Shown piece after piece: positions 7,411 through 28,462 of a stretch of 48,023 nt of DNA (positions are counted from its first letter, which is position 1; each line of letters opens with the position of its first letter). Under the pieces are notes generated by a model. The model made no database searches. It worked only from the letters and a program-made list of their open reading frames with translations, and had not been told where the DNA came from. Source of the stretch: Parcubacteria group bacterium Gr01-1014_20 (GTDB lineage: Bacteria; Patescibacteriota; Minisyncoccia; UBA6257; 2-01-FULL-56-20). A program made the translations under genes and the position numbers. The stretch spans positions 1-48,023 of the forward strand of contig VMFW01000004.1 of the NCBI GenBank assembly GCA_007376265.1, given 5' to 3'.

Positions 7411-7773
7411 ATGAAAACTCAATTTTACTCCATCAAACCGTGGGAAAAGAAATATCTCCAAAATAAAATCCAAACCCTTGGCTTGCCCATTGAAACCGAG
7501 TTTATCGTCGACCAACTCGACAAAGACCATATCCCCCCATATACTAGCGTCGAAATAATTTCCGTTTTTGTGGGTTCCGTAGTTGATCAAGATGTAATAA
7601 ATTCATTCCCCAACCTCAAGCTTATTACCACTCGCTCCACCGGCTACAACCACCTTGATGTCGTGAGCGCCAAAGAAAAAAATATCCCCGTCGCCCACGT
7701 TCCCACCTACGGCGAAAACACCGTTGCCATCGCTGATACCGAAAAACGCCTGAAAAAATCACCGGCTTTCTAA
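7411..7773 (+). pseudogene. truncated N-terminal remnant of a D-isomer-specific 2-hydroxyacid dehydrogenase
   Basis: Residues 1-106 align with the N-terminus of the intact paralog at 11289 (LITTRSTGYNHLDV...VPTYGENTVA versus LIATRSTGFDHIDL...VPGYGDNTVA). After about nt 7728 the sequence diverges (IADTEKRLKKSPAF) and stops. The NAD-binding and catalytic domains are absent. Confidence 0.7.
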
Positions 7774-7788
7774 AGTTTTAATAAGATC

Positions 7789-10305
7789 ATGAGAATCGAA
7801 GAGCCGCCAATCTCAGGAGTTTCGGGGGAATCAGATGAAGATCTGTCTTTTTTAGAAAAAGGCGAAGGAAAACTCGAATCACAAAGAGGAAATGGAGCCG
7901 TCAGGAAAGTTTCACCGATAGATTCCCGGAGATATAGAATTCAGGATCTCGCCTCTCGATCAACCCAGCAAGAAGCCGGAAAGCTAATAAATTTTTATGG
8001 GCGTTTTCAGCCCGAGATCACAAACCCCACCGAACTAACCGAAGCCAACTATATTTCTGCGTTGAGGGGCGTAGCTTCCGAAAGCTCAGAAGTAAAACCA
8101 GATTATTTTGAAAAAATTTTTGGATTTCTGAGCGGAGCCGTTGCCGGTGAGGTTTTAGATGCCAAATTTACCGAGCCGCCTAGCCCAAGGGAGCTTTACC
8201 AGATGATGTCCTTGGTTTACGCGAGAGTTGCGGCTCTAGCGCTTTACGAGAAACAAACCTCCCAAGCTTTTGCCGAAATCGAAAATTTCAACAGTTTCCT
8301 AGATCTACAAGTCACCGAAAAAACCAAAAGTAAAGAAGCTAATTTTATTGGAACCTTAAAATATGACCTCCTGCAACTTAAGGAAAGTATCACTACCGAA
8401 AAGGACGTGATGGTCGAAGATCTGCCAGCGAGTGCCGATGAGTTTAGTATTTTTAGCTTAAAACACAACCGATCACGGAAAATACCGGCTTTTAAAACCT
8501 TACTCCAGGAGAGACTCCGGTGGCACGCCGCGTTAAACCTTGCCCTTAATATCTCCGAAACTGTGATAGAAGGCGATCAAGATCAGGGAGAACTATGGGT
8601 TCAAAGCGGTCCCTCGGTAGATAGCTTGTCTAAAATTATCTCAACCAACTATAAAGACAGCCTTGATTTGTATCAGACCGTCGAAAAAAATGACACACCC
8701 GTCTACTGGGAGGCCAAAGAAAGACTCGACGGCCTCGAGTCCTTCCGAAACGTGGTTTTTGGTCGAGATGGACTTTTCTTTTTCACCGCCCTCAAAGCGG
8801 CCGATTTTGGTCATGGCCAACAAGACCTAAAGTATATTGTCGTCACTCGAAATATCCTGAGCTTGGATGAGGGTGGTGACGCAAAAAGAATTAAAGAAAA
8901 AGTTACCAGATATTTAAAAGAAAACGGAGTTACTCTAGATTTTACATTTATTGATACCGGTTTCATTGGAAGCATTCCCGAATTCGCAATTTCCTGTCTT
9001 GCAGAGGAGGGGGACACCAAACTGTCCGAGGACGAAATAGATCAAAAAATAACCCTCCTTTCCTCGAATCGTCTTGGTCGTCGTGAGTTATCAAGGAGGG
9101 GGACATCCGAGCGTCGTAGCGCTCAACGATCTGCGGTTGGCGGCATCGAGGATCGTCCCCAGGCTATCAATTCACCTTCGCGTCTCTGTCTAGACGAGAA
9201 GGGACGCTTAGTTCCAGAGAAGGTGCCAAATTCGATTTCCGCTCAGCTTCAGGCTTGGGTCGTTGAGCACACGGTGATGCGTAATTTTTCGCCAAGAGTA
9301 GATGCCAAAAAAAAGATTCCGACAGAAAAGCCAGACCCACTTGAGGGTTACACCTACGTGGAAGATTTTCGAGGACCCAGTATTAGCACCCATCCGATTG
9401 AGTTAAGAATTAACGAAGCCGGAGAAAAATTTTTAATCAAATCCGGTCCCGACCACACTGTGAGAGCCGAGCTTGTGAGTGCTAAACTATTTGAGAGACT
9501 TCACCTTAAAACCTTACATCGGGGGGAGGAAAAATCTCCAGAAGTTGCAGAAACAAAGTTGATAGAAACTGATAGTGGGCCGAAAATCCTCATCCGCTTC
9601 ATTGAAGATATGCAACCATGCACCCTGAAGCTGCCAGAATCGCCGATTGTGAAGAAAAAAGTCCAACTCGGTTTTGTAATCGACGCTCTTCTTGGTCAAT
9701 ACGATCGCACTCCGTGGAACATTATGGTCGGAGGGAATAATAGGGTCGCTTTTATTGATCACGGCGGAAGTCTGTTCTCGAGGGCTCGGGGTGGTTTTAA
9801 GGGCTTCCCGGCTAACTTATCAATTGGTGAAATCAAAGCCATGATGGACAACCCTCAGTTCCCAGGGACGCCGGTCAACGAAGCCTATGCAGGAATTTTT
9901 GACGTAAAAACCGATTCGTTGAGATTGGATTCCTTGAAAATAAAAGATGCAGATTCTCGAGATGCCATAAGTATCGGTTACGAGTTTCTGCTCAATCTTC
10001 GGGACGAAGAGATAGAAGAGGTTGTCGATTCAGCTGGGTTTTTAGATGGCCGGCGATCAATCCGATCTTTAGAGAGCAAGATAAAATCACTAGAGAAAGA
10101 GCTGGAGCATATCGCCCCAGGAAGTCGTGACTACAGGATGACCAAGGAGGCCATTATGACCTTCAAAGCCATGATTAAAGCTGGAGGGGAGGCTAACTAC
10201 CTCAAAAAAGCCATCGCCAGTAGAAAGAAGAGCTTGCAAGATCTTTTTGCTACGGTTCTCAGGGGGTTTGGGAGAGGAAGTGGTCACTTTTCTGACTGGC
10301 CATAA
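7789..10305 (+). CDS. large hypothetical protein (838 aa) with C-terminal PI3K/PI4K-like atypical kinase core
   Basis: GFVIDALLGQYDRTPWNIMVGGNNRVAFIDHGGS (about nt 9682-9772) matches a DRxxxN catalytic loop plus an ID(F/H)G metal-binding loop. Upstream, FLIKSG...RAELVSAKLF fits the Lys/Glu pair. The N-terminus is acidic and disordered, and no signal peptide is present. Confidence 0.75.
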   Translation: MRIEEPPISGVSGESDEDLSFLEKGEGKLESQRGNGAVRKVSPIDSRRYRIQDLASRSTQQEAGKLINFYGRFQPEITNPTELTEANYISALRGVASESSEVKPDYFEKIFGFLSGAVAGEVLDAKFTEPPSPRELYQMMSLVYARVAALALYEKQTSQAFAEIENFNSFLDLQVTEKTKSKEANFIGTLKYDLLQLKESITTEKDVMVEDLPASADEFSIFSLKHNRSRKIPAFKTLLQERLRWHAALNLALNISETVIEGDQDQGELWVQSGPSVDSLSKIISTNYKDSLDLYQTVEKNDTPVYWEAKERLDGLESFRNVVFGRDGLFFFTALKAADFGHGQQDLKYIVVTRNILSLDEGGDAKRIKEKVTRYLKENGVTLDFTFIDTGFIGSIPEFAISCLAEEGDTKLSEDEIDQKITLLSSNRLGRRELSRRGTSERRSAQRSAVGGIEDRPQAINSPSRLCLDEKGRLVPEKVPNSISAQLQAWVVEHTVMRNFSPRVDAKKKIPTEKPDPLEGYTYVEDFRGPSISTHPIELRINEAGEKFLIKSGPDHTVRAELVSAKLFERLHLKTLHRGEEKSPEVAETKLIETDSGPKILIRFIEDMQPCTLKLPESPIVKKKVQLGFVIDALLGQYDRTPWNIMVGGNNRVAFIDHGGSLFSRARGGFKGFPANLSIGEIKAMMDNPQFPGTPVNEAYAGIFDVKTDSLRLDSLKIKDADSRDAISIGYEFLLNLRDEEIEEVVDSAGFLDGRRSIRSLESKIKSLEKELEHIAPGSRDYRMTKEAIMTFKAMIKAGGEANYLKKAIASRKKSLQDLFATVLRGFGRGSGHFSDWP

Positions 10306-10340: not shown

Positions 10341-10369
10341 TTGACAAATAGCTAAATATAAGGTATAAT
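10341..10369 (+). promoter_or_regulatory. perfect consensus sigma70 promoter
   Basis: TTGACA (10341-10346), 17 nt, TATAAT (10364-10369). Confidence 0.8.
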
Positions 10370-10476: not shown

Positions 10477-11196
10477 GTGAAGAAAATTTCTGCCATCGTC
10501 GCCATCCTGGTTACTTTATTCGCGTTCAGCGCGAGCGCCAACAGCCAGCAAATCTCAACCGCGATCAATGTGTTTGACAAGTACATTGCCTCGCCGGGGT
10601 TCGTACCTCACGACGGCACAGTCGTTCAGACCGACGTCGTTCTTTCGGCAACCAACGGGTTCTCTTTGGAGGTCTGGGGGTCGTCGGGAACCGATTTCAA
10701 ACCCAATTTTGGGCGCGAGATCGATGTGACAGTCGCCTGGTCAAACGCACATGTTGGATTGGCTTTATCAATTTTCGATCTGAACAACGTGCTCAGTGCG
10801 AAGACGACCGACATTGTTCAGCCTTCCATCGAGCTTCACCAGTTCGTCACTGCCGGCAGTCACAGTTTTACTGCCTACGCGCGCGCTGAATACAACGCCT
10901 GCACACGCAGTTTTGTCCTCAACTCCGCCGCGAATGGCATCGTTGGCCTGAAGCACAATTGGCAAGTAAGCTCGGTCTTCTCCACGAGTCAAAAATTGCA
11001 AGTTCTCTATAATGATGGAATTTTTGGCAGCCAGAGTGGATTTATCACTCGGTTCGATCTGGGGGTTTCGGCTAAAGTATCCGAGGCCGTCAGTCTGAAT
11101 GGGATGGTGAAAAATTCCATTCCGTCGCGATCGTTGACTGATCGCAGAGAGATTACCGCTTTTGGCTTCGGTGTTTCATCGAATTTCCCGCTCTAA
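10477..11196 (+). CDS. secreted beta-rich protein, Gcw_chp/porin-like outer-membrane beta-barrel candidate
   Basis: GTG start with an AAAGGAG SD. Signal peptide MKKISAIVAILVTLFAFSASA. An alternating beta pattern is present. ISTAINVFDKYI...GFSLEVWGSSGTDF...GREIDVTVAW parallels Gcw_chp family N-termini. Aromatic residues lie near the C-terminus (SSNFPL). Confidence 0.7.
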   Translation: MKKISAIVAILVTLFAFSASANSQQISTAINVFDKYIASPGFVPHDGTVVQTDVVLSATNGFSLEVWGSSGTDFKPNFGREIDVTVAWSNAHVGLALSIFDLNNVLSAKTTDIVQPSIELHQFVTAGSHSFTAYARAEYNACTRSFVLNSAANGIVGLKHNWQVSSVFSTSQKLQVLYNDGIFGSQSGFITRFDLGVSAKVSEAVSLNGMVKNSIPSRSLTDRREITAFGFGVSSNFPL

Positions 11197-11213
11197 TGAG
11201 CGGCGAGTTCTCC

Positions 11214-11247
11214 GGGTCCGCATCGTTCAGGTGCGGACCCTTTTTTT
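11214..11247 (+). terminator. intrinsic terminator
   Basis: gggtccgca pairs with tgcggaccc, followed by T7. Confidence 0.85.
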
Positions 11248-11288
11248 CAAAATTTTTCATTTTAGATTATAATTACTCGTATAAATCC

Positions 11289-12296
11289 ATGAAAATCGCT
11301 TTTTACGAAATTGAGGGTTGGGAGGAAAAAATCATTCAGGAAAATTTTCCTAAGGACGAGGTTTTTATCAGTCACGAAAAAGTTGGCCCCCTAAATCTCC
11401 CAAACCAAAATAATTTCGAAGTTGTTTCTATTTTTGTAAACTCCAAAATCGATAAGAAAGTTTTAGATTCTTTCCCAAAAGTCAGGCTAATCGCCACCCG
11501 GTCCACCGGTTTTGATCATATTGACCTTGAAGCCTGTAAGGCGAGAGACATTAAGATAGCCTATGTTCCAGGTTACGGAGATAACACAGTGGCCGAGTTT
11601 ACCTTTGGCTTGCTTTTGAACCTAACCCGCAAAATATACGAGTCTATTGGTCAGATGAAAGAAACCGGATCTTTCTCCCTTCTTGGTATGCGGGGGACTG
11701 ATCTAAAGGGGAAAACCATGGGCGTGATTGGAACTGGCAGGATCGGTAAAGAAGTCATCAAAATTGCCAAAGGTTTTGGGTTAGGGATTGTTGCTTTCGA
11801 TCCTAAGCCAGATATTAATTTTGCCGCCGAGAATAAAGTTCGCTATTTGAGTCTAGACGAGCTCCTGGGGAGTTCCGACATTATCACCATCCATTGCCCG
11901 TATAACGCAAGCACCCACTATTTAATTAATCAAAAAAATATCTCTAAGATCAAACGAGGCGCCTACCTCATAAATACCGCGCGAGGCGGCATCGTTGAAA
12001 CTGAGGCTCTAATAGAGGCTCTTTCGAAGGGGATTCTAGCCGGTGCGGCTCTAGATGTGCTCGAAGAAGAAGGGGACACCAAAGACGAGTTGAACCTATT
12101 GAGAGGTGGCCATCCCAGAGAAGCAGCGCTGAAAACCATGCTTGAGAACCATATTTTAATGAAAATGGTGAACGTCCTCATCACTCCCCACAATGCTTTC
12201 AACTCTAATGAAGCCCTTTTGAGAATTTTAAGCCACACGCTTGAAAACATTCACTGCTTTGAAGAGGGCATAGAAAGAAATTTGGTTAAAATATGA
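11289..12296 (+). CDS. D-isomer-specific 2-hydroxyacid dehydrogenase (D-lactate/glycerate dehydrogenase-like)
   Basis: Start moved to the ATG at 11289 (MKIAFYEIEGW), because the track start at 11196 lies in the upstream terminator. Rossmann motif GVIGTGRIGKEV, then NTARGGIVE and TPHNAF catalytic His region. Confidence 0.85.
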   Translation: MKIAFYEIEGWEEKIIQENFPKDEVFISHEKVGPLNLPNQNNFEVVSIFVNSKIDKKVLDSFPKVRLIATRSTGFDHIDLEACKARDIKIAYVPGYGDNTVAEFTFGLLLNLTRKIYESIGQMKETGSFSLLGMRGTDLKGKTMGVIGTGRIGKEVIKIAKGFGLGIVAFDPKPDINFAAENKVRYLSLDELLGSSDIITIHCPYNASTHYLINQKNISKIKRGAYLINTARGGIVETEALIEALSKGILAGAALDVLEEEGDTKDELNLLRGGHPREAALKTMLENHILMKMVNVLITPHNAFNSNEALLRILSHTLENIHCFEEGIERNLVKI

Positions 12297-16873: not shown

Positions 16874-18865
16874 ATGAATAGTAAACCTTTTAAAATCCAC
16901 GCTCCGCACAAGCCAGCCGGGGACCAACCCAAGGCGATTCAACAACTCGTCCAAGGCCTGCATGATGGTTATTCACACCAAACCCTGCTCGGCGTAACCG
17001 GTTCTGGAAAAACTTTTACGATTGCGAATGTTGTGGAGGCGATTCAAAAGCCGACACTTGTTATCGCTCACAATAAAACCCTTGCGGCCCAGCTCTGTAA
17101 CGAGTTTCGAGAGCTTTTCCCGGAAAATTCCGTCAACTACTTCGTTTCCTACTACGACTACTATCAGCCCGAGGCCTACATGCCTACCAGTGACACGTAT
17201 ATCGACAAAGAGGCCATGATTAACGATGAGATCGATAAACTTCGTCATTCGGCCACTACCGCCCTTTTAACCCGCAAAGACACGATTGTAGTGGCTTCCG
17301 TCTCCTGTATCTATGGTTTGGGAGCCCCCGAGGTCTACGAGGCGAATATTTTTAAGCTTTCAAAAGGCGTGAAAATAGATCGCAAAGAATTTGTGAGAAA
17401 ACTGATCGAGCTTCAATTTTCACGAACCACTTCCGACTTAAAACGGGGTACCTTTCGTTTAAAGGGAGATCACTGGGAAATTATGCCAGTCGACCGCGAG
17501 ATTATTTATGATTTTGAGATTAAAGGAGGCAAGATAGACTCAATTTACGAATTTGAGCCAGCGGAGGGTTTTATCCCCGGAAAAACCCCGGAGGTTCCAG
17601 AAGTTATCTTTGCTCCCGCCAAACACTTCATTACTCCCAAAGAAGATCGAGAACGAGCGGTGAAAGCCATTCGAATTGAACTCAAAGAGCGTCTAAGGTA
17701 TTTCGAAAAAAACGGCAAACTGCTCGAAGCTGAACGTCTTGAAAGGCGCACCAAGTTTGATTTAGCCATGATGAAAGAAGTCGGTTACTGTCACGGGATT
17801 GAAAACTATTCCAGACATTTATCAGGACGCAACGCCGGAGATCCGCCCGAAACCCTCTTGGATTATTTCCGAGGTGATTTTTTGACGGTTATCGATGAAT
17901 CTCATGTCACGATCCCACAGTTAAACGGCATGTATCACGGTGATGCTTCGAGAAAGCAAACGCTTATCGAGTATGGCTTCCGTCTGCCCTCCGCCGCCGA
18001 CAACCGTCCGCTCAAATTCTCTGAATTTGAAAAAAGGATTGGCAAAGTGATTTTTACCTCCGCTACACCAAGTGATTTTGAAAAAAAGAAATCACAGCAA
18101 ATCGTGGAACAGGTTATTCGCCCAACCGGCTTAGTTGATCCTAAAATCACCATCCGCCCAGCCCGAGGCCAAGTGCAGGATCTTATCCCCGAGATCGAGA
18201 AACGTGTCGGCGTCAAATCTAGCGGAAAAGAAAGGGTTTTGGTTACGACATTAACCAAAAAGATGGCCGAAGACCTAAGTTCTTATCTGCAGGAAAAAAA
18301 GCTAAAAGTCCAATATCTTCATAGTGACGTGGCTACTCTCGATCGTATCAGGATTTTAACCGCTCTTAGGAAAGGGGAGTTTGATGTGCTTGTTGGGGTA
18401 AACCTTCTAAGAGAAGGCTTAGATTTACCCGAAGTGACACTCGTGGCCATTTTAGATGCGGACAAAGAAGGATTTTTGCGAAGTGAAACCTCTCTCATCC
18501 AAACCATTGGCCGGGCGGCTCGTAACGCGGACGGGGAAGTATTAATGTACGCCGACAACATCACCGGCTCGATTAAACGTGCTGTAGGTGAAACCGAGCG
18601 GCGTCGCAAACTTCAACTTGAATACAATCAAAAACATGAAATCACGCCTAAAACCATTATCAAAGCCATTAGGGACATCCTTCCGGATGTAGATGCTTTA
18701 TTAAAACTTGAAATTAGACCCGTAAAATCAAAGGTCGGACTAGAGAGACTTACCAAGCAGAAGGAAAAAGAAATGAGAGAGGCCGCTAAAAATTTAAACT
18801 TTGAACTCGCCGCCCTCCTGCGAGATGAAATCAGGGAGTTGTCTAAAAAAATTAAAGCATCTTAA
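16874..18865 (+). CDS. uvrB: excinuclease ABC subunit B
   Basis: 663 aa. Motifs: GVTGSGKTF Walker A, DESH box, helicase motifs, and C-terminal UVR domain (FELAALLRDEIRELSKK). Confidence 0.97.
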   Translation: MNSKPFKIHAPHKPAGDQPKAIQQLVQGLHDGYSHQTLLGVTGSGKTFTIANVVEAIQKPTLVIAHNKTLAAQLCNEFRELFPENSVNYFVSYYDYYQPEAYMPTSDTYIDKEAMINDEIDKLRHSATTALLTRKDTIVVASVSCIYGLGAPEVYEANIFKLSKGVKIDRKEFVRKLIELQFSRTTSDLKRGTFRLKGDHWEIMPVDREIIYDFEIKGGKIDSIYEFEPAEGFIPGKTPEVPEVIFAPAKHFITPKEDRERAVKAIRIELKERLRYFEKNGKLLEAERLERRTKFDLAMMKEVGYCHGIENYSRHLSGRNAGDPPETLLDYFRGDFLTVIDESHVTIPQLNGMYHGDASRKQTLIEYGFRLPSAADNRPLKFSEFEKRIGKVIFTSATPSDFEKKKSQQIVEQVIRPTGLVDPKITIRPARGQVQDLIPEIEKRVGVKSSGKERVLVTTLTKKMAEDLSSYLQEKKLKVQYLHSDVATLDRIRILTALRKGEFDVLVGVNLLREGLDLPEVTLVAILDADKEGFLRSETSLIQTIGRAARNADGEVLMYADNITGSIKRAVGETERRRKLQLEYNQKHEITPKTIIKAIRDILPDVDALLKLEIRPVKSKVGLERLTKQKEKEMREAAKNLNFELAALLRDEIRELSKKIKAS

Positions 18866-19328: not shown

Positions 19329-21911
19329 ATGCAAGACAAAATAATTATTAAGGGCGCCAGAGAACACAATTTAAAAAATATTTCGCTCGAACTCCCCCGA
19401 GACAAAATGATTGTTTTCACCGGACTTTCTGGTTCCGGCAAGTCGAGCCTGGCTTTTGATACTATTTTTGCCGAAGGCCAAAGACGCTATATTGAATCTC
19501 TTTCGGCTTATGCCAGACAGTTTTTGGGCAAGCTCGACAAACCCGACGTCGATGAAATTGAAGGCCTTTCCCCAGCCATCTCGATCGACCAAAAGAGCCA
19601 CTCGGCAAATCCCAGGTCAACCGTCGCCACCATCACCGAAATTTATGACTATCTGCGCGTTCTCTATGCCCGTGTTGGGGTTCCACACTGTCCCAGGTGC
19701 GGTAAAGAGATTCGCAAAATGACCAAAGAGCAAATTGTGGACGCGGTGATCGAATTTAACAAAACTAGTAAATCCAAAAAGAATACAGAAATGATTGTCC
19801 TTGCGACTACCGTGAGAGGACGAAAGGGCGAGTATTACCAGATGCTCTACGACTTTCTAAACGCTGGTTTCTCGGAAGTTAAAGTTGATGAACAGTTCCA
19901 CTCCCTAAGGAATCGAATAGAAATGAGTCGTTATAAAGCTCACACCATCCAACTGGTTATTGACAGAATTCCGGCCGCAACCGATTGGAAAAATAAAGAC
20001 AACCGACTTCGCCTTGCCGAAGCCATTGAGCACGCCCTAAGGTATGGCGCTGAAACTGTGGATATCTCAGTAGGGGATAAGTCGCTTGCGCTTTCATCAA
20101 AGTTCGCCTGTCCCGATGACAATTTCTCATTCCCCGAAATAGAGCCGAGACTCTTCTCGTTTAACAGTCCCTACGGCGCCTGTGAAGAGTGTCACGGCTT
20201 AGGCACCGAAAGTGTCTGGTCTGACAAACCCTGCTCCAAGTGCTTAGGCAAACGCCTCAAAGAAGAAGCCTTAAGCGTTTTAATCAAAGGTAAAAATATT
20301 GTGAATATGACAGCGATGTCGATTATCGATGCTCACGAATTTGCCTCGAAAATCCAAAAAACTGAAACCAAGAAATTTATGGAGGTGGCCGAACTACCAC
20401 TTAAAGAAATCAAAAATCGCCTAAAGTTTATGCTCGATGTCGGTCTTGATTATTTAACTCTTGATCGCAAAGCCGGTACGCTTTCTGGCGGTGAAGCTCA
20501 ACGAATTCGCTTGGCCTCCCAGATTGGGTCACGACTAGTTGGCACTTTGTATATTCTTGATGAACCTACTATTGGACTTCATCAGAGGGATAACGACAAA
20601 CTGATCCTCACTCTCCACGAGCTGAAAGACTTAGGTAATACCATTATTGTGGTTGAGCACGACGAAGACACCATTCGAGAGTCCGACTACTTAGTCGATA
20701 TTGGCCCAGGCGCCGGCATTCACGGCGGTGAAATTATTGCTCAAGGGCCGATTTCAGAACTCTTACCCTTTTCCACCGAAAGTCGATCCTCCTCCGGAGG
20801 AAAAAGTAAATCTTCGGGGGCAAAAGATAAATTTCCAGACTCCCTAACCCTCCAATATCTTCGAGGCAAAAAATTCATTGAAGTTCCGGAAGAACGCCGC
20901 AAGGTCTCAAAAGATAAGCCCCATCTTAAAATTCGTGGAGCTTATGCTAATAACCTTCAAAATCTAGACATTGATATTCCACTTAGCCGTTTCGTTTGCG
21001 TTACTGGCGTCTCCGGTTCTGGTAAAAGCTCTCTCGTCTACGACGTGATCTATAAAGCTCTTTCGAGTCGCTACGGAGGCACGCATTACCGCGAATTTGG
21101 CTGTAAATCTGTCGCCGGCACAGAATATCTAACTCGACTGATTAACATTGATCAGTCACCAATCGGCCGTACCCCTCGTTCTAATCCCGCTACTTACGTA
21201 GGCGCTTGGACTTTTATTCGCGATCTTTTTGCGTCGACCGAAGACGCCCGTGTTCGCGGCTATAAAATTGGGCGCTTTAGCTTCAACCGTCCGGGTGGTC
21301 GCTGTGAAAACTGTGAGGGTCACGGCACGATCGCCATCGAAATGCATTTCTTGCCTACAGTGTACGTTAAGTGTGACGTATGTAAGGGAAAAAGATTCGA
21401 CCGAGAAACCCTTGAGGTTGAGTATAAGAGCAAAAACATTCACGACATCCTAGAGATGACTATCGAAGAGGCCAATGAGTTTTTCGAAGACATTCCCTGG
21501 CTCCACGATCGCTTAAAGATTTTAGACGAAGTTGGTTTGGGGTACTTAACCCTCGGCCAATCGGCAACCACTCTTTCAGGAGGTGAAGCTCAACGCGTCA
21601 AGCTTTCCGCCGAGTTGGGCAAGCGTGACACCATGAAAACCTTGTATTTACTTGACGAACCTACGACTGGCCTTCACTTCGCGGACGTTCACAAACTCCT
21701 AGAAGTCCTCCAAAGATTAGTCAGTAAAGGCAATACTGTTGTTGTGATTGAACACAATCTGGACGTCATCAAAACCGCTGATTGGGTCATTGATCTAGGT
21801 CCCGAAGGGGGAGTCAAAGGTGGCAAGGTTGTCGCAGAAGGCACTCCGGAGGAGATTGCTAGAAAGAAGGGGAGCTTCACGGGCGAATACCTCCGCAAGG
21901 TGCTCGCTTAA
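19329..21911 (+). CDS. uvrA: excinuclease ABC subunit A, lacking the insertion domain
   Basis: 860 aa. Two ABC modules are present ([30 protein letters not shown] twice). The zinc module reads CEECHGLG-9 [11 protein letters not shown]. Confidence 0.97.
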
Positions 21912-26955: not shown

Positions 26956-27205
26956 AAATTCCGCGCCGATCGGCAAGAATTTTTTCTCGCAGTGCATAGC
27001 TTTGGGGAGTTATGCTTGCCACTGGCTCAGTAGGGGCTTGTCCGCTCGCTTTTTTCACCTGAAACCAGGGTAGTTGGATAATTCTCCCGCTGAAAAAATC
27101 ACGCCAATTCCCATTTTCGTCAATTCGATACAGCGACGTACAAACCTCCTTGTTTCTAGGTTAAACTTCTGCGATAATAGTGCCACAATTTAGTGAAATG
27201 TGCAA

Positions 27206-28462
27206 ATGAAACCCAGCTATCAAAACCTACCTTCCACACCTGGCGTTTATATTATGAAGGGCGCTAAGGGAGAAATTTTATACATCGGCAAGGCTGTCAA
27301 TCTAAAACGAAGGGTTTCAAGCTATTTTCTCCGAGCGCACGACTATCGACTTGAAAAGCTCGTGAGTTTGATTAAGGAAATTGATCACCTGAAAACTGAC
27401 AGCGGCCTCGAAGCCCTCATTCTAGAATCCGAATTGATAAAAAAGCATCAGCCACCTTTTAATGTTCTCGAAAAAGACGACAAGAGCTTTCTTTACGTCG
27501 CCATTACAAAAGAGAAATTTCCCCGCGTACTCCTAGTTCGTGGTAAAGACAGGGCACAAGGTGAGATTCATTCAAACCCAAAGTTTAAAACCCCTAAGCT
27601 TTACTACGGCCCGTTCACTTCCGCCGTTTCTCTCCGCGAAGCCTTAAAAATCATTCGGCGAATTTTCCCCTACAGCGTACACGAACCAGGTAAAATTTAC
27701 CCGAGGCCATGTTTCGACTATTCGATTGGCCAGTGCCCGGGGGTTTGCGCAAATTTAATCACTAAAAAAGACTACGCCAAAACCATCCGAAACATTCGTC
27801 TTTTTTTTACCGGCAAAAAACTTCAAATTCTTAAATCCCTTGAAAAGGAAATGAAGCAGGCGAGTAAAGCTTTAGAATTCGAAAAGGCGGGAAAAATTCG
27901 CCACCAGATGTTTGCCCTCAAGCACATCCAAGACGTTGCCTTCATTGCTGAGGATTCTCACTTAAAACCCATAACCCATAACCCAGGACTCAACTTTCGC
28001 ATTGAAGGCTACGACATCTCAAACACCTCCGGCACCTCCGCTACCGGCTCAATGGTTGTCTTTTCCGCCAAGGGAGGATATGTCTCCGGTGGAGAAAGCT
28101 TTAAACCCGATAAAAATCAGTATCGAAAATTTAGAATTCGTTCGATAAAAAGCCCAGACGATACAGGTATGTTACGAGAAGTTCTTTCCCGGCGTTTGGA
28201 GCATCGAGACTGGACTTTTCCTAATTTAATTTTAATAGATGGTGGTAGGGGACAGATCAATGCCGCTAAATCAGTCCTAGCGGAAGCCAGGATCAAGATT
28301 CCGGTCGTCGGTATTGTCAAGGGCCCGGAACGTAAACGCAACGACATCATCGGCATCCTCCCGAAAGGTGTAGAAAAAAAGACGTTAATCCAGGTTCGCG
28401 ACGAAGCCCATCGATTTGCGATTAGTTACCACAAGAAACTTCGAGGCGTCATTACTCGGTAA
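27206..28462 (+). CDS. uvrC: excinuclease ABC subunit C, minimal form without C-terminal (HhH)2 domain
   Basis: GIY-YIG motifs are present (GVYIMKGAKGEILYIGKA, LKRRVSSY), followed by a UVR domain (ALEFEKAGKIRHQMFALKHI) and an Endo V-like domain (IEGYDISNTSG...RDEAHRFAISYHKK). The protein ends right after this. An alternative GTG start lies at 27200. Confidence 0.93.
   Translation: MKPSYQNLPSTPGVYIMKGAKGEILYIGKAVNLKRRVSSYFLRAHDYRLEKLVSLIKEIDHLKTDSGLEALILESELIKKHQPPFNVLEKDDKSFLYVAITKEKFPRVLLVRGKDRAQGEIHSNPKFKTPKLYYGPFTSAVSLREALKIIRRIFPYSVHEPGKIYPRPCFDYSIGQCPGVCANLITKKDYAKTIRNIRLFFTGKKLQILKSLEKEMKQASKALEFEKAGKIRHQMFALKHIQDVAFIAEDSHLKPITHNPGLNFRIEGYDISNTSGTSATGSMVVFSAKGGYVSGGESFKPDKNQYRKFRIRSIKSPDDTGMLREVLSRRLEHRDWTFPNLILIDGGRGQINAAKSVLAEARIKIPVVGIVKGPERKRNDIIGILPKGVEKKTLIQVRDEAHRFAISYHKKLRGVITR

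Follow-up and report, generated by a model that had tools for sequence, protein, structure and literature searches.

A predicted atypical kinase module at the C terminus of a Patescibacteria-restricted multidomain protein, with relatives in phages and giant bacterial proteins

The 48,023-nucleotide stretch of contig VMFW01000004.1 from Parcubacteria group bacterium Gr01-1014_20 (assembly GCA_007376265.1, positions 1 to 48,023; hereafter the window) carries at 7789..10305 (+) an open reading frame (ORF) of 838 uninterrupted codons, whose 838-aa product ends in a module with the fold of the protein kinase-like (PKL) superfamily. The fold and the catalytic-residue assignment of this module (aa ~510-828) are established computationally, because a structural model, its matches among solved structures and the conservation of related domains agree; kinase activity is a prediction from these data. 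An original prediction, made from the sequence alone, had placed a kinase catalytic core in the C-terminal third of the protein, and both this call and its motif assignment were right, since K551, E561, D639, N644 and D657 align with highly conserved columns of the family. On balance we favour the reading that the module is an active-looking atypical PKL kinase of an uncurated family lying structurally between PI3K/PI4K and HipA/CtkA, that it is a mobile cassette here forming the C terminus of a scaffold of the Patescibacteria (candidate phyla radiation, CPR), and that the window copy was shortened by a rearrangement. A PKL-fold kinase with a PI3K-like catalytic loop is of a known kind; its architecture on the CPR scaffold is new. 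The analysis also defines a large kinase family (787 clusters) without a curated model, tying together virion proteins that phages inject, multi-enzyme proteins of giant size and a scaffold specific to CPR.

Fold and catalytic residues of the kinase module

The kinase module (aa 510-828; 9316..10272, +), as delimited by an AlphaFold2 (AF2) model, Foldseek and related sequence clusters, comprises an N-lobe and a catalytic core, followed by a bundle of C-terminal helices, the last of them GGEAxYLKxAxxxR. A dedicated model of aa 510-838, built on an alignment of 35 sequences, short stand-alone relatives among them, reached a predicted local distance difference test score (pLDDT) of 93 and a predicted template modelling (TM) score of 0.92. 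Its elements follow the canonical order: strands beta1 to beta3, the last closing with K551, then helix C bearing E561, strands beta4 and beta5, helix E, the catalytic loop from D639 to N644 and, after a beta-hairpin, D657; the model thus has the bilobal order of elements by which the PKL superfamily is recognised. Searched with Foldseek against the PDB, it returned 183 matches at E<=1e-3, and all 50 of the matches listed, from which the identities below are taken, are kinases, with PI3K and VPS34 dominating. Among those listed are PI3K-alpha (9b4s, E=2.2e-5), VPS34 (~1e-4), PI3K-delta, PknB and Rio2; the lowest E belongs to the N-acetylhexosamine kinase NahK (4ocv, 1.6e-5; TM 0.27-0.32), and the best TM to Helicobacter pylori CtkA (3akl_C, E=6.2e-5), at 0.46 normalised to the query and 0.54 normalised to the target. 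The AF2 model of the full-length protein is mediocre (pLDDT 67.6, with the central module at low confidence) and its PDB matches are weak, yet again 50 of the 50 listed are kinase-fold proteins. The structure prediction and fold search that had been proposed as checks on the original prediction therefore recovered a kinase fold.

The residues expected of a PKL active site (K551, E561, D639, N644 and D657) are all present, and the matching columns are 92-99% conserved in an alignment of 179 related domain instances (counts below are given over the instances aligned at each column). The beta3 ATP-binding lysine, K551 (9439..9441, +), lies in FLIKSG (aa 548-553), where strand E38-42 of the model ends, and is Lys in 152/154; the helix-C glutamate, E561 (9469..9471, +), lies in RAELVSAKLF (aa 559-568) inside helix H46-67 and is Glu or Asp in 154/157. 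The catalytic loop D639-R-T-P-W-N644 (9703..9720, +), which closes the segment LLGQYDRTPWN (aa 634-644), is the equivalent of DRHxxN and aligns to GDRHNSN of PI3K-alpha, with Asp in 152/166 (Asn in 13) and Asn in 164/167 at its two key positions. The DFG-equivalent Mg-binding loop I656-D657-H-G659 (9754..9765, +), within AFIDHGGS (aa 654-661), aligns to IDFG of PI3K-alpha, with Asp in 167/170 and Gly in 157/162. The length of the ORF and the places of all motifs quoted in the original prediction are confirmed, and its reading of the FLIKSG lysine, the RAELV glutamate, DRTPWN and IDHG agrees both with the alignment to the 179 relatives and with the order of elements in the model. At the position of the activation loop follows a family-specific basic, glycine-rich loop, R665-A-R-G-G-F-K671 (9781..9801, +), in which R is conserved in 136/162, A in 146/161, G in 153/161 and K in 126/157; from its conservation and placement we infer a candidate substrate- or phosphate-binding element. 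Across 48 distant relatives no columns are invariant other than those of K, E, D, N, D and G, with a glycine loop, GGSTGA, coming close to invariance. The family can be summarised by the catalytic signature K...E...D-x4/7-N...IDNGG-x3-RAxGGxK.

The module had been called a kinase of PI3K/PI4K type, and this part of the call stands only in some respects. The catalytic loop and the DFG-like motif do resemble those of PI3K, VPS34 and PI4K in spacing and chemistry (query LLGQYDRTPWNIMV...AFIDHG vs PI3K ...HIDFG): DRTPWN and IDHG are 12 residues apart, as against ~12-13 in PI3K/PI4K, the D, R, N, D and G match, and the differences are His to Thr and Phe to His (Asn in most homologs). PI3K and VPS34 also account for many of the Foldseek matches listed, at E of ~2e-5 to 2e-4 and query-normalised TM of 0.36-0.40. 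The Pfam family PF00454 (PI3_PI4_kinase), the comparison originally proposed, matches the query with E=0.016 over aa 624-664 (profile positions 133-174 of 241), hence exactly on the motif stretch including the catalytic loop, and is the only kinase family in Pfam that the query itself matches; however, at 15.5 bits the match remains below the gathering cutoff of 27.1. In addition, the His of DRH is absent, the PIK helical accessory domain is lacking, the top TM among the matches listed is to CtkA, and the relatives of the query are prokaryotic and viral rather than eukaryotic.

Other known kinases are similar in part. CtkA (JHP0940; PDB 3AKL) shares a compact bacterial kinase-like fold and is a Ser/Thr kinase encoded on an integrative and conjugative element (ICE), reported as an effector of the Tfs3 type IV secretion system (T4SS) (PMC7366825). 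However, identity in the structural alignment is 14% and similarity is undetectable in sequence, and while CtkA is a ~280-aa single-domain protein of an ICE, the query kinase forms the C-terminal domain of a CPR protein of 838 aa encoded on the chromosome and carries a long helical C-terminal extension. The HipA kinases (PF07804 HipA_C, PF20613 HipA_2) have a comparable catalytic loop, GNxD...N, and are the only Pfam kinase families reached by several distant relatives, with HipA_C matched in 6/48 (best E=1e-5) and HipA_2 in 5/48 (4.7e-6). These scores are nevertheless all below the curated cutoffs (for example, 16.1 bits vs 30.5 for P0093), the query has no match to either family, its gene has no hipB-like neighbour, and the domain architecture differs. 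One distant relative has a weak Pfam APH match. Neither the query nor its relatives match any family in NCBIfam, PHROGs or PADLOC, and the module has no model in these libraries or in Pfam. PDB sequence searches with the single protein and with two profiles (A2 and A4) gave nothing significant (A4, E>=0.057); the family profile aligns to PDB sequences at E~0.06-0.13 and only over the DRH..N..IDFG stretch of PI3K-alpha, the resemblance that the original prediction had picked up.

Relatives in phages and giant proteins, and the Patescibacteria scaffold

An exhaustive search of 1.84 billion representative proteins with a profile of the C-terminal domain retrieved 787 related clusters (at 50% identity) at E<=1e-3 and 95 at E<=1e-10. 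The kinase modules are internal or terminal in relatives of up to 6,637 aa, and the nearer relatives hold them within proteins of 2,300-6,600 aa. Beside the module in the 48 distant relatives lie Phage_Mu_F domains (12/48), ADPrib_exo_Tox domains (7/48) and, in several, portal domains; a giant protein with the module (P0035) carries a 2H-SAK domain. By tblastn the module is found in 20 cultured phages (of Gordonia, Pseudomonas, Aeromonas, Escherichia and others), and in Pseudomonas phage Jeremy it sits mid-protein in a 1,213-aa protein annotated as ADP-ribosyltransferase (ART), with the ART domain C-terminal to it. The best matches among viral structure models (BFVD) are a phage portal fusion (3.6e-9), an ART protein of Mycobacterium phage Onyinye and a protein of Gordonia phage GodonK, and some of the structural matches from phages and archaeal viruses, tailed-virus proteins among them, have been automatically named 'PI3K/PI4K catalytic domain-containing'. 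By this distribution among sequences, the kinase module appears to be a mobile cassette common to phages, giant bacterial proteins and the CPR scaffold. Because its sequence relatives are bacterial and phage proteins (MuF, portal and ART fusions, and giant proteins), it is a bacterial and phage conflict-type module and no eukaryote-like import, contrary to the eukaryote-like character first ascribed to it. A separate observation concerns P0055, a 4,246-aa protein that joins the kinase module in one polypeptide to UDP-glucose dehydrogenase, PRPP-synthetase-like, glycogen-phosphorylase-like, HD, PHP, GT2 and HEAT domains; its kinase module, too, gives a weak PF00454 match.

These fusions recall the polyvalent proteins of phages and conjugative elements and the MuF polymorphic toxins (PMC5512222, PMC5576092), to which the MuF, portal and ART phage proteins and the 2H-SAK giant protein among the distant relatives correspond. 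The CPR protein differs in being chromosomal, with no phage genes nearby and no MuF or portal domain. A kinase has been described among polyvalent proteins by Iyer et al. (2017), with a His...Asp insert and loss of the C-lobe, in Verrucomicrobia and Bacteroidetes (PMC5512222). We reject as unproven an identification of the present module with that family, whose stated signature, compared by description, is unlike NWD...DN/IDNGG.

The close family to which the 838-aa protein belongs is restricted to Patescibacteria. A word-indexed search yielded 19 homologs and a domain-only search 6 more, all unnamed and at 29-45% identity, and a scan of one genome per species gave 11 loci, all in metagenome-assembled genomes of Patescibacteria (Yanofskybacteria, Paceibacter, Lloydbacteria and several labelled Saccharibacteria). 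Their alignment reveals a family scaffold of ~1,020-1,100 aa, in which the first ~300 aa form an N-terminal domain; after it come a helical region that begins at NFYGRF, a central module and a C-terminal domain. In one group of homologs (group A), which includes the query, the C-terminal domain is the kinase module. In the other (group B) it is a different domain, which ends in MVPHE and, by profile-profile comparison, is the central module over again in diverged form (hhalign probability 89.9%, E=1.7e-6, 189 columns). The two groups part directly after an invariant VEHxxxRNFxP motif. The kinase is therefore an interchangeable C-terminal domain of a scaffold specific to this lineage, and in a neighbour-joining tree the kinase modules on the scaffold form one clade, with the modules of giant proteins as nearest outgroups. 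Group B consists of homologs P0010-P0018, with loci L004, L007, L009 and L011; its second copy of the central module reads LFLARDG...DVGxYGAIH...HFxEDTFSG...MVPHE and has no counterpart among PDB sequences or among the families scanned in Pfam, NCBIfam and PADLOC. A divergent CPR sub-branch (P0025 and relatives) reads NYNRRPHN at the catalytic loop, with Asn at the catalytic Asp; its gene at locus L013 (8001..9674) is flanked on one side by the ribosomal-protein operon, with an IS1595 transposase, and on the other by a gene of the inositol-monophosphatase family.

Ahead of the kinase module, the window protein retains three parts of this layout. Residues 1-57 (7789..7959, +) form an acidic N-terminus that corresponds in the homolog alignment to the linker of full-length homologs; pLDDT is <50 for aa 1-49 in the full-length model and no hydrophobic, signal-like start is visible in the 838-aa sequence, in agreement with the disordered N-terminus without signal peptide that had been predicted. 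The helical scaffold domain (aa ~58-300; 7960..8688, +), which opens with the conserved NFYGRF motif and is kept in both groups, is modelled mostly as long helices at pLDDT 73-94 and has no Pfam match. The central alpha/beta module (aa ~301-505; 8689..9303, +), here termed the RDG module, is more strongly conserved than any other part of the family, with 36 invariant columns and the consensus VVFGRDG...KYxVVT...YLxQNGV...FIDTGFxGSIPEF...IExRP...QLxAWxVEHxxxRNFxP; in the query, VVFGRDG occupies aa 322-328 and FIDTGFIGSIP aa 387-397. A profile search for further relatives of this module returned one match, an already-known family member, and its profiles A5 and A6 found nothing in the PDB; Pfam likewise has no match to it. 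The likeness to HAD hydrolases that had been suggested for this segment is not supported: the HAD motif I, DxDx(T/V), is not satisfied, Gly occupies the position of the nucleophile Asp in VVFGRDG, and no HAD family in Pfam is matched at E<=10. Being both the most conserved part of the family and the one duplicated in the sister group, the RDG module is a second target for structure determination.

Proposed function and rival explanations

In the reading that we favour, K551 and E561 would position ATP, N644 and D657 would hold Mg2+, D639 would serve as the base for gamma-phosphate transfer, and the RAxGGxK loop (R665-K671) after the DxG motif would probably contact the substrate. Analogy to the CtkA, HipA and T7 kinases would make a protein Ser/Thr of a broadly conserved cellular target the likeliest substrate; a protein is favoured because of the CtkA and HipA analogy, because relatives are fused to protein-modifying ART toxins, and because the substrate-side loop is conserved across very different hosts. 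In tailed phages, the module fused to MuF, portal or ADP-ribosyltransferase domains would be part of polyvalent proteins carried inside the virion and injected from it, and in other bacteria it sits inside giant multi-enzyme proteins. In Patescibacteria it would have become the swappable C terminus of a ~1,050-aa cytoplasmic scaffold (N-domain, helical domain and RDG module), the sister group having a second RDG module instead, and the window copy would have lost its N-terminal domain in a rearrangement that also cut the adjacent dehydrogenase paralog. If the kinase is active, its substrate would reveal what phages phosphorylate on entry, and the enzyme would join the small number of enzymatic 'signalling or conflict' functions that can be recognised in the reduced CPR genomes.

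Several observations weigh against this reading. Members of the CPR clade have a degenerate glycine-rich loop, with SISTHP (S/G-I-S/G-T-H-P) for GGSTGA, and the query has Thr for the His of DRH. The 13 of 166 relatives with Asn at the catalytic Asp include the CPR protein P0025, and some of these lineages may, judging by that replacement, be pseudokinases or carry out other chemistry; for all family members, kinase activity is a prediction from models and conservation. TM-scores are modest (<=0.54 among the matches listed) and the lowest Foldseek E is to a sugar kinase, NahK, which together leave room for a small-molecule substrate. The CPR-type module was not found by either a viral-contig scan or tblastn of phage genomes; the link to phages runs through distant relatives only. 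Finally, the query is without the N-terminal ~270-300 residues that every full-length homolog keeps (all 11 of the full-length members of group A), and the 838-aa ORF has no obvious Shine-Dalgarno sequence; the window copy may be a decaying gene.

The rival to be taken most seriously, which we nonetheless hold to be a minority possibility, is a lipid or small-molecule kinase, either of phosphoinositide type or acting on a sugar or antibiotic in the manner of NahK or APH, and perhaps working with the RDG module on one metabolite. The rank of NahK by E and the many PI3K and VPS34 lipid kinases among the Foldseek matches listed are in its favour, as is the standing of PF00454 as the sole kinase family matched by the query itself; the basic loop RAxGGxK, itself conserved, might serve to bind a phosphorylated head group, the weak APH match comes from one distant relative, and an inositol-monophosphatase-family gene adjoins P0025. 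However, the TM to NahK is low beside that to CtkA, a protein kinase, the accessory helical domain of PI3K is absent, and relatives are fused to protein-modifying ART toxins in phage virion proteins. To our knowledge, phosphoinositide synthesis is not known in this bacterial group, which also counts against a lipid kinase. That the motif resemblance is due to chance and no kinase domain exists is a negligible prospect: the Pfam match is below threshold and sequence-only PDB searches were not significant, but a high-confidence kinase-fold model and near-invariant catalytic residues in 179 domains refute it.

It is unlikely, in our judgement, that the window copy is a non-functional remnant, 5'-truncated after a deletion and merely still open. 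The loss of the ~270-300-aa N-terminal domain, the truncated dehydrogenase fragment 16 nt upstream and the lack of a clear ribosome-binding site or promoter would fit such a remnant; however, 838 codons remain uninterrupted, all invariant residues of the RDG module and the kinase are kept, and the module works stand-alone or differently fused in many other proteins. Quite unlikely is a secreted or contact-delivered effector directed against the host cell of an episymbiont, with the scaffold as a polymorphic-effector carrier of swappable C-terminal modules. Such a carrier would accord with the conserved N-terminal ~500-900 aa followed by alternative domains that diverge right after VEHxxxRNFxP, with the occurrence of the kinase cassette in injected phage proteins, and with the status of CtkA, the closest solved structure, as a T4SS effector. 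Set against this are the absence of a signal peptide, of a secretion-system or immunity gene near the kinase gene, and of any conserved neighbourhood: the neighbours are housekeeping genes, enolase among them, homologs elsewhere lie near SecA, Obg, a DEAD helicase and ROK, and no downstream gene is conserved at the place where polymorphic toxins have their immunity gene, the 239-aa neighbour in the window being unrelated to the neighbour at locus L001. Moreover, what stands in place of the kinase in the sister group is a copy of an internal module rather than a recognisable toxin. Equally doubtful is the broader proposition of a Patescibacteria 'polymorphic scaffold' with an exchangeable C-terminal cassette (a phage-type PI3K/HipA-like kinase or a second RDG module) whose kinase versions are delivered to, or act on, the host cell of the episymbiont; were it true, these kinase versions would be a new class of CPR effector sharing its module with injected phage polyvalent proteins.

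Genomic context and the 5' truncation

The kinase gene had been thought to sit in an island, a description that the window does not bear out. Its 48 kb are ordinary chromosome, with genes for a glycerate-kinase-like protein, PEP synthase, enolase, an ECF sigma factor, FKBP, UvrA/B/C, IMPDH, PurA, DinB, QueA and endonuclease IV; among the ORFs scanned there is no integrase, transposase or other mobile-element gene, and the window contains no tRNA, Rfam match or break in GC content or composition. Flanking repeats that might mark an insertion were sought at ~7.4-11.3 kb, and only short, chance-level ones were found. No HipB-like antitoxin gene adjoins the kinase gene, which has the dehydrogenase fragment on one side and, on the other, a gene for an unrelated secreted protein with a promoter-like site of its own.

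What the region does show is a local scar. The ORF at 7411..7773 (+), which ends 16 nt 5' of the kinase gene, encodes a truncated D-2-hydroxyacid dehydrogenase paralog of 120 aa that covers only positions 12-99 of 134 in Pfam 2-Hacid_dh. It corresponds to the first ~106 residues of such an enzyme, shares 40% identity with the N-terminal part of an intact paralog (~11289..12296), and loses its similarity after ...GENTVA, at nt ~7728. The similarity of the query to its homologs starts at nt ~7945-7980, equivalent to homolog residues ~305-330, and nothing like the N-terminal domain of the family is found anywhere in the window. Both genes look truncated at one junction, and the dehydrogenase fragment and the shortened kinase gene look like two sides of one rearrangement scar, left by deletion or recombination. 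The reading frame of the window copy is intact across this shortened form.

Just past the stop of the kinase gene lies a perfect sigma-70 consensus (10341..10369, +; TTGACA, 17 nt, TATAAT, 12/12), followed by an ORF (10477..11196) whose 239-aa product starts in the manner of a signal peptide and matches nothing in Pfam; since the promoter-like site stands ahead of it, this ORF may well be a separate transcription unit. The first 31 codons of the next ORF (11196..12296, +; 366 aa) overlap the end of the 10477..11196 ORF region, and because similarity to 2-hydroxyacid dehydrogenases begins at M32, its start was probably called too early and would lie at nt ~11289 (MKIAFYEIEGW...). Elsewhere in the window, uvrB (16874..18865), uvrA (19329..21911) and uvrC (27200..28462) lie within ~12 kb, and the + strand holds nearly all substantial ORFs.

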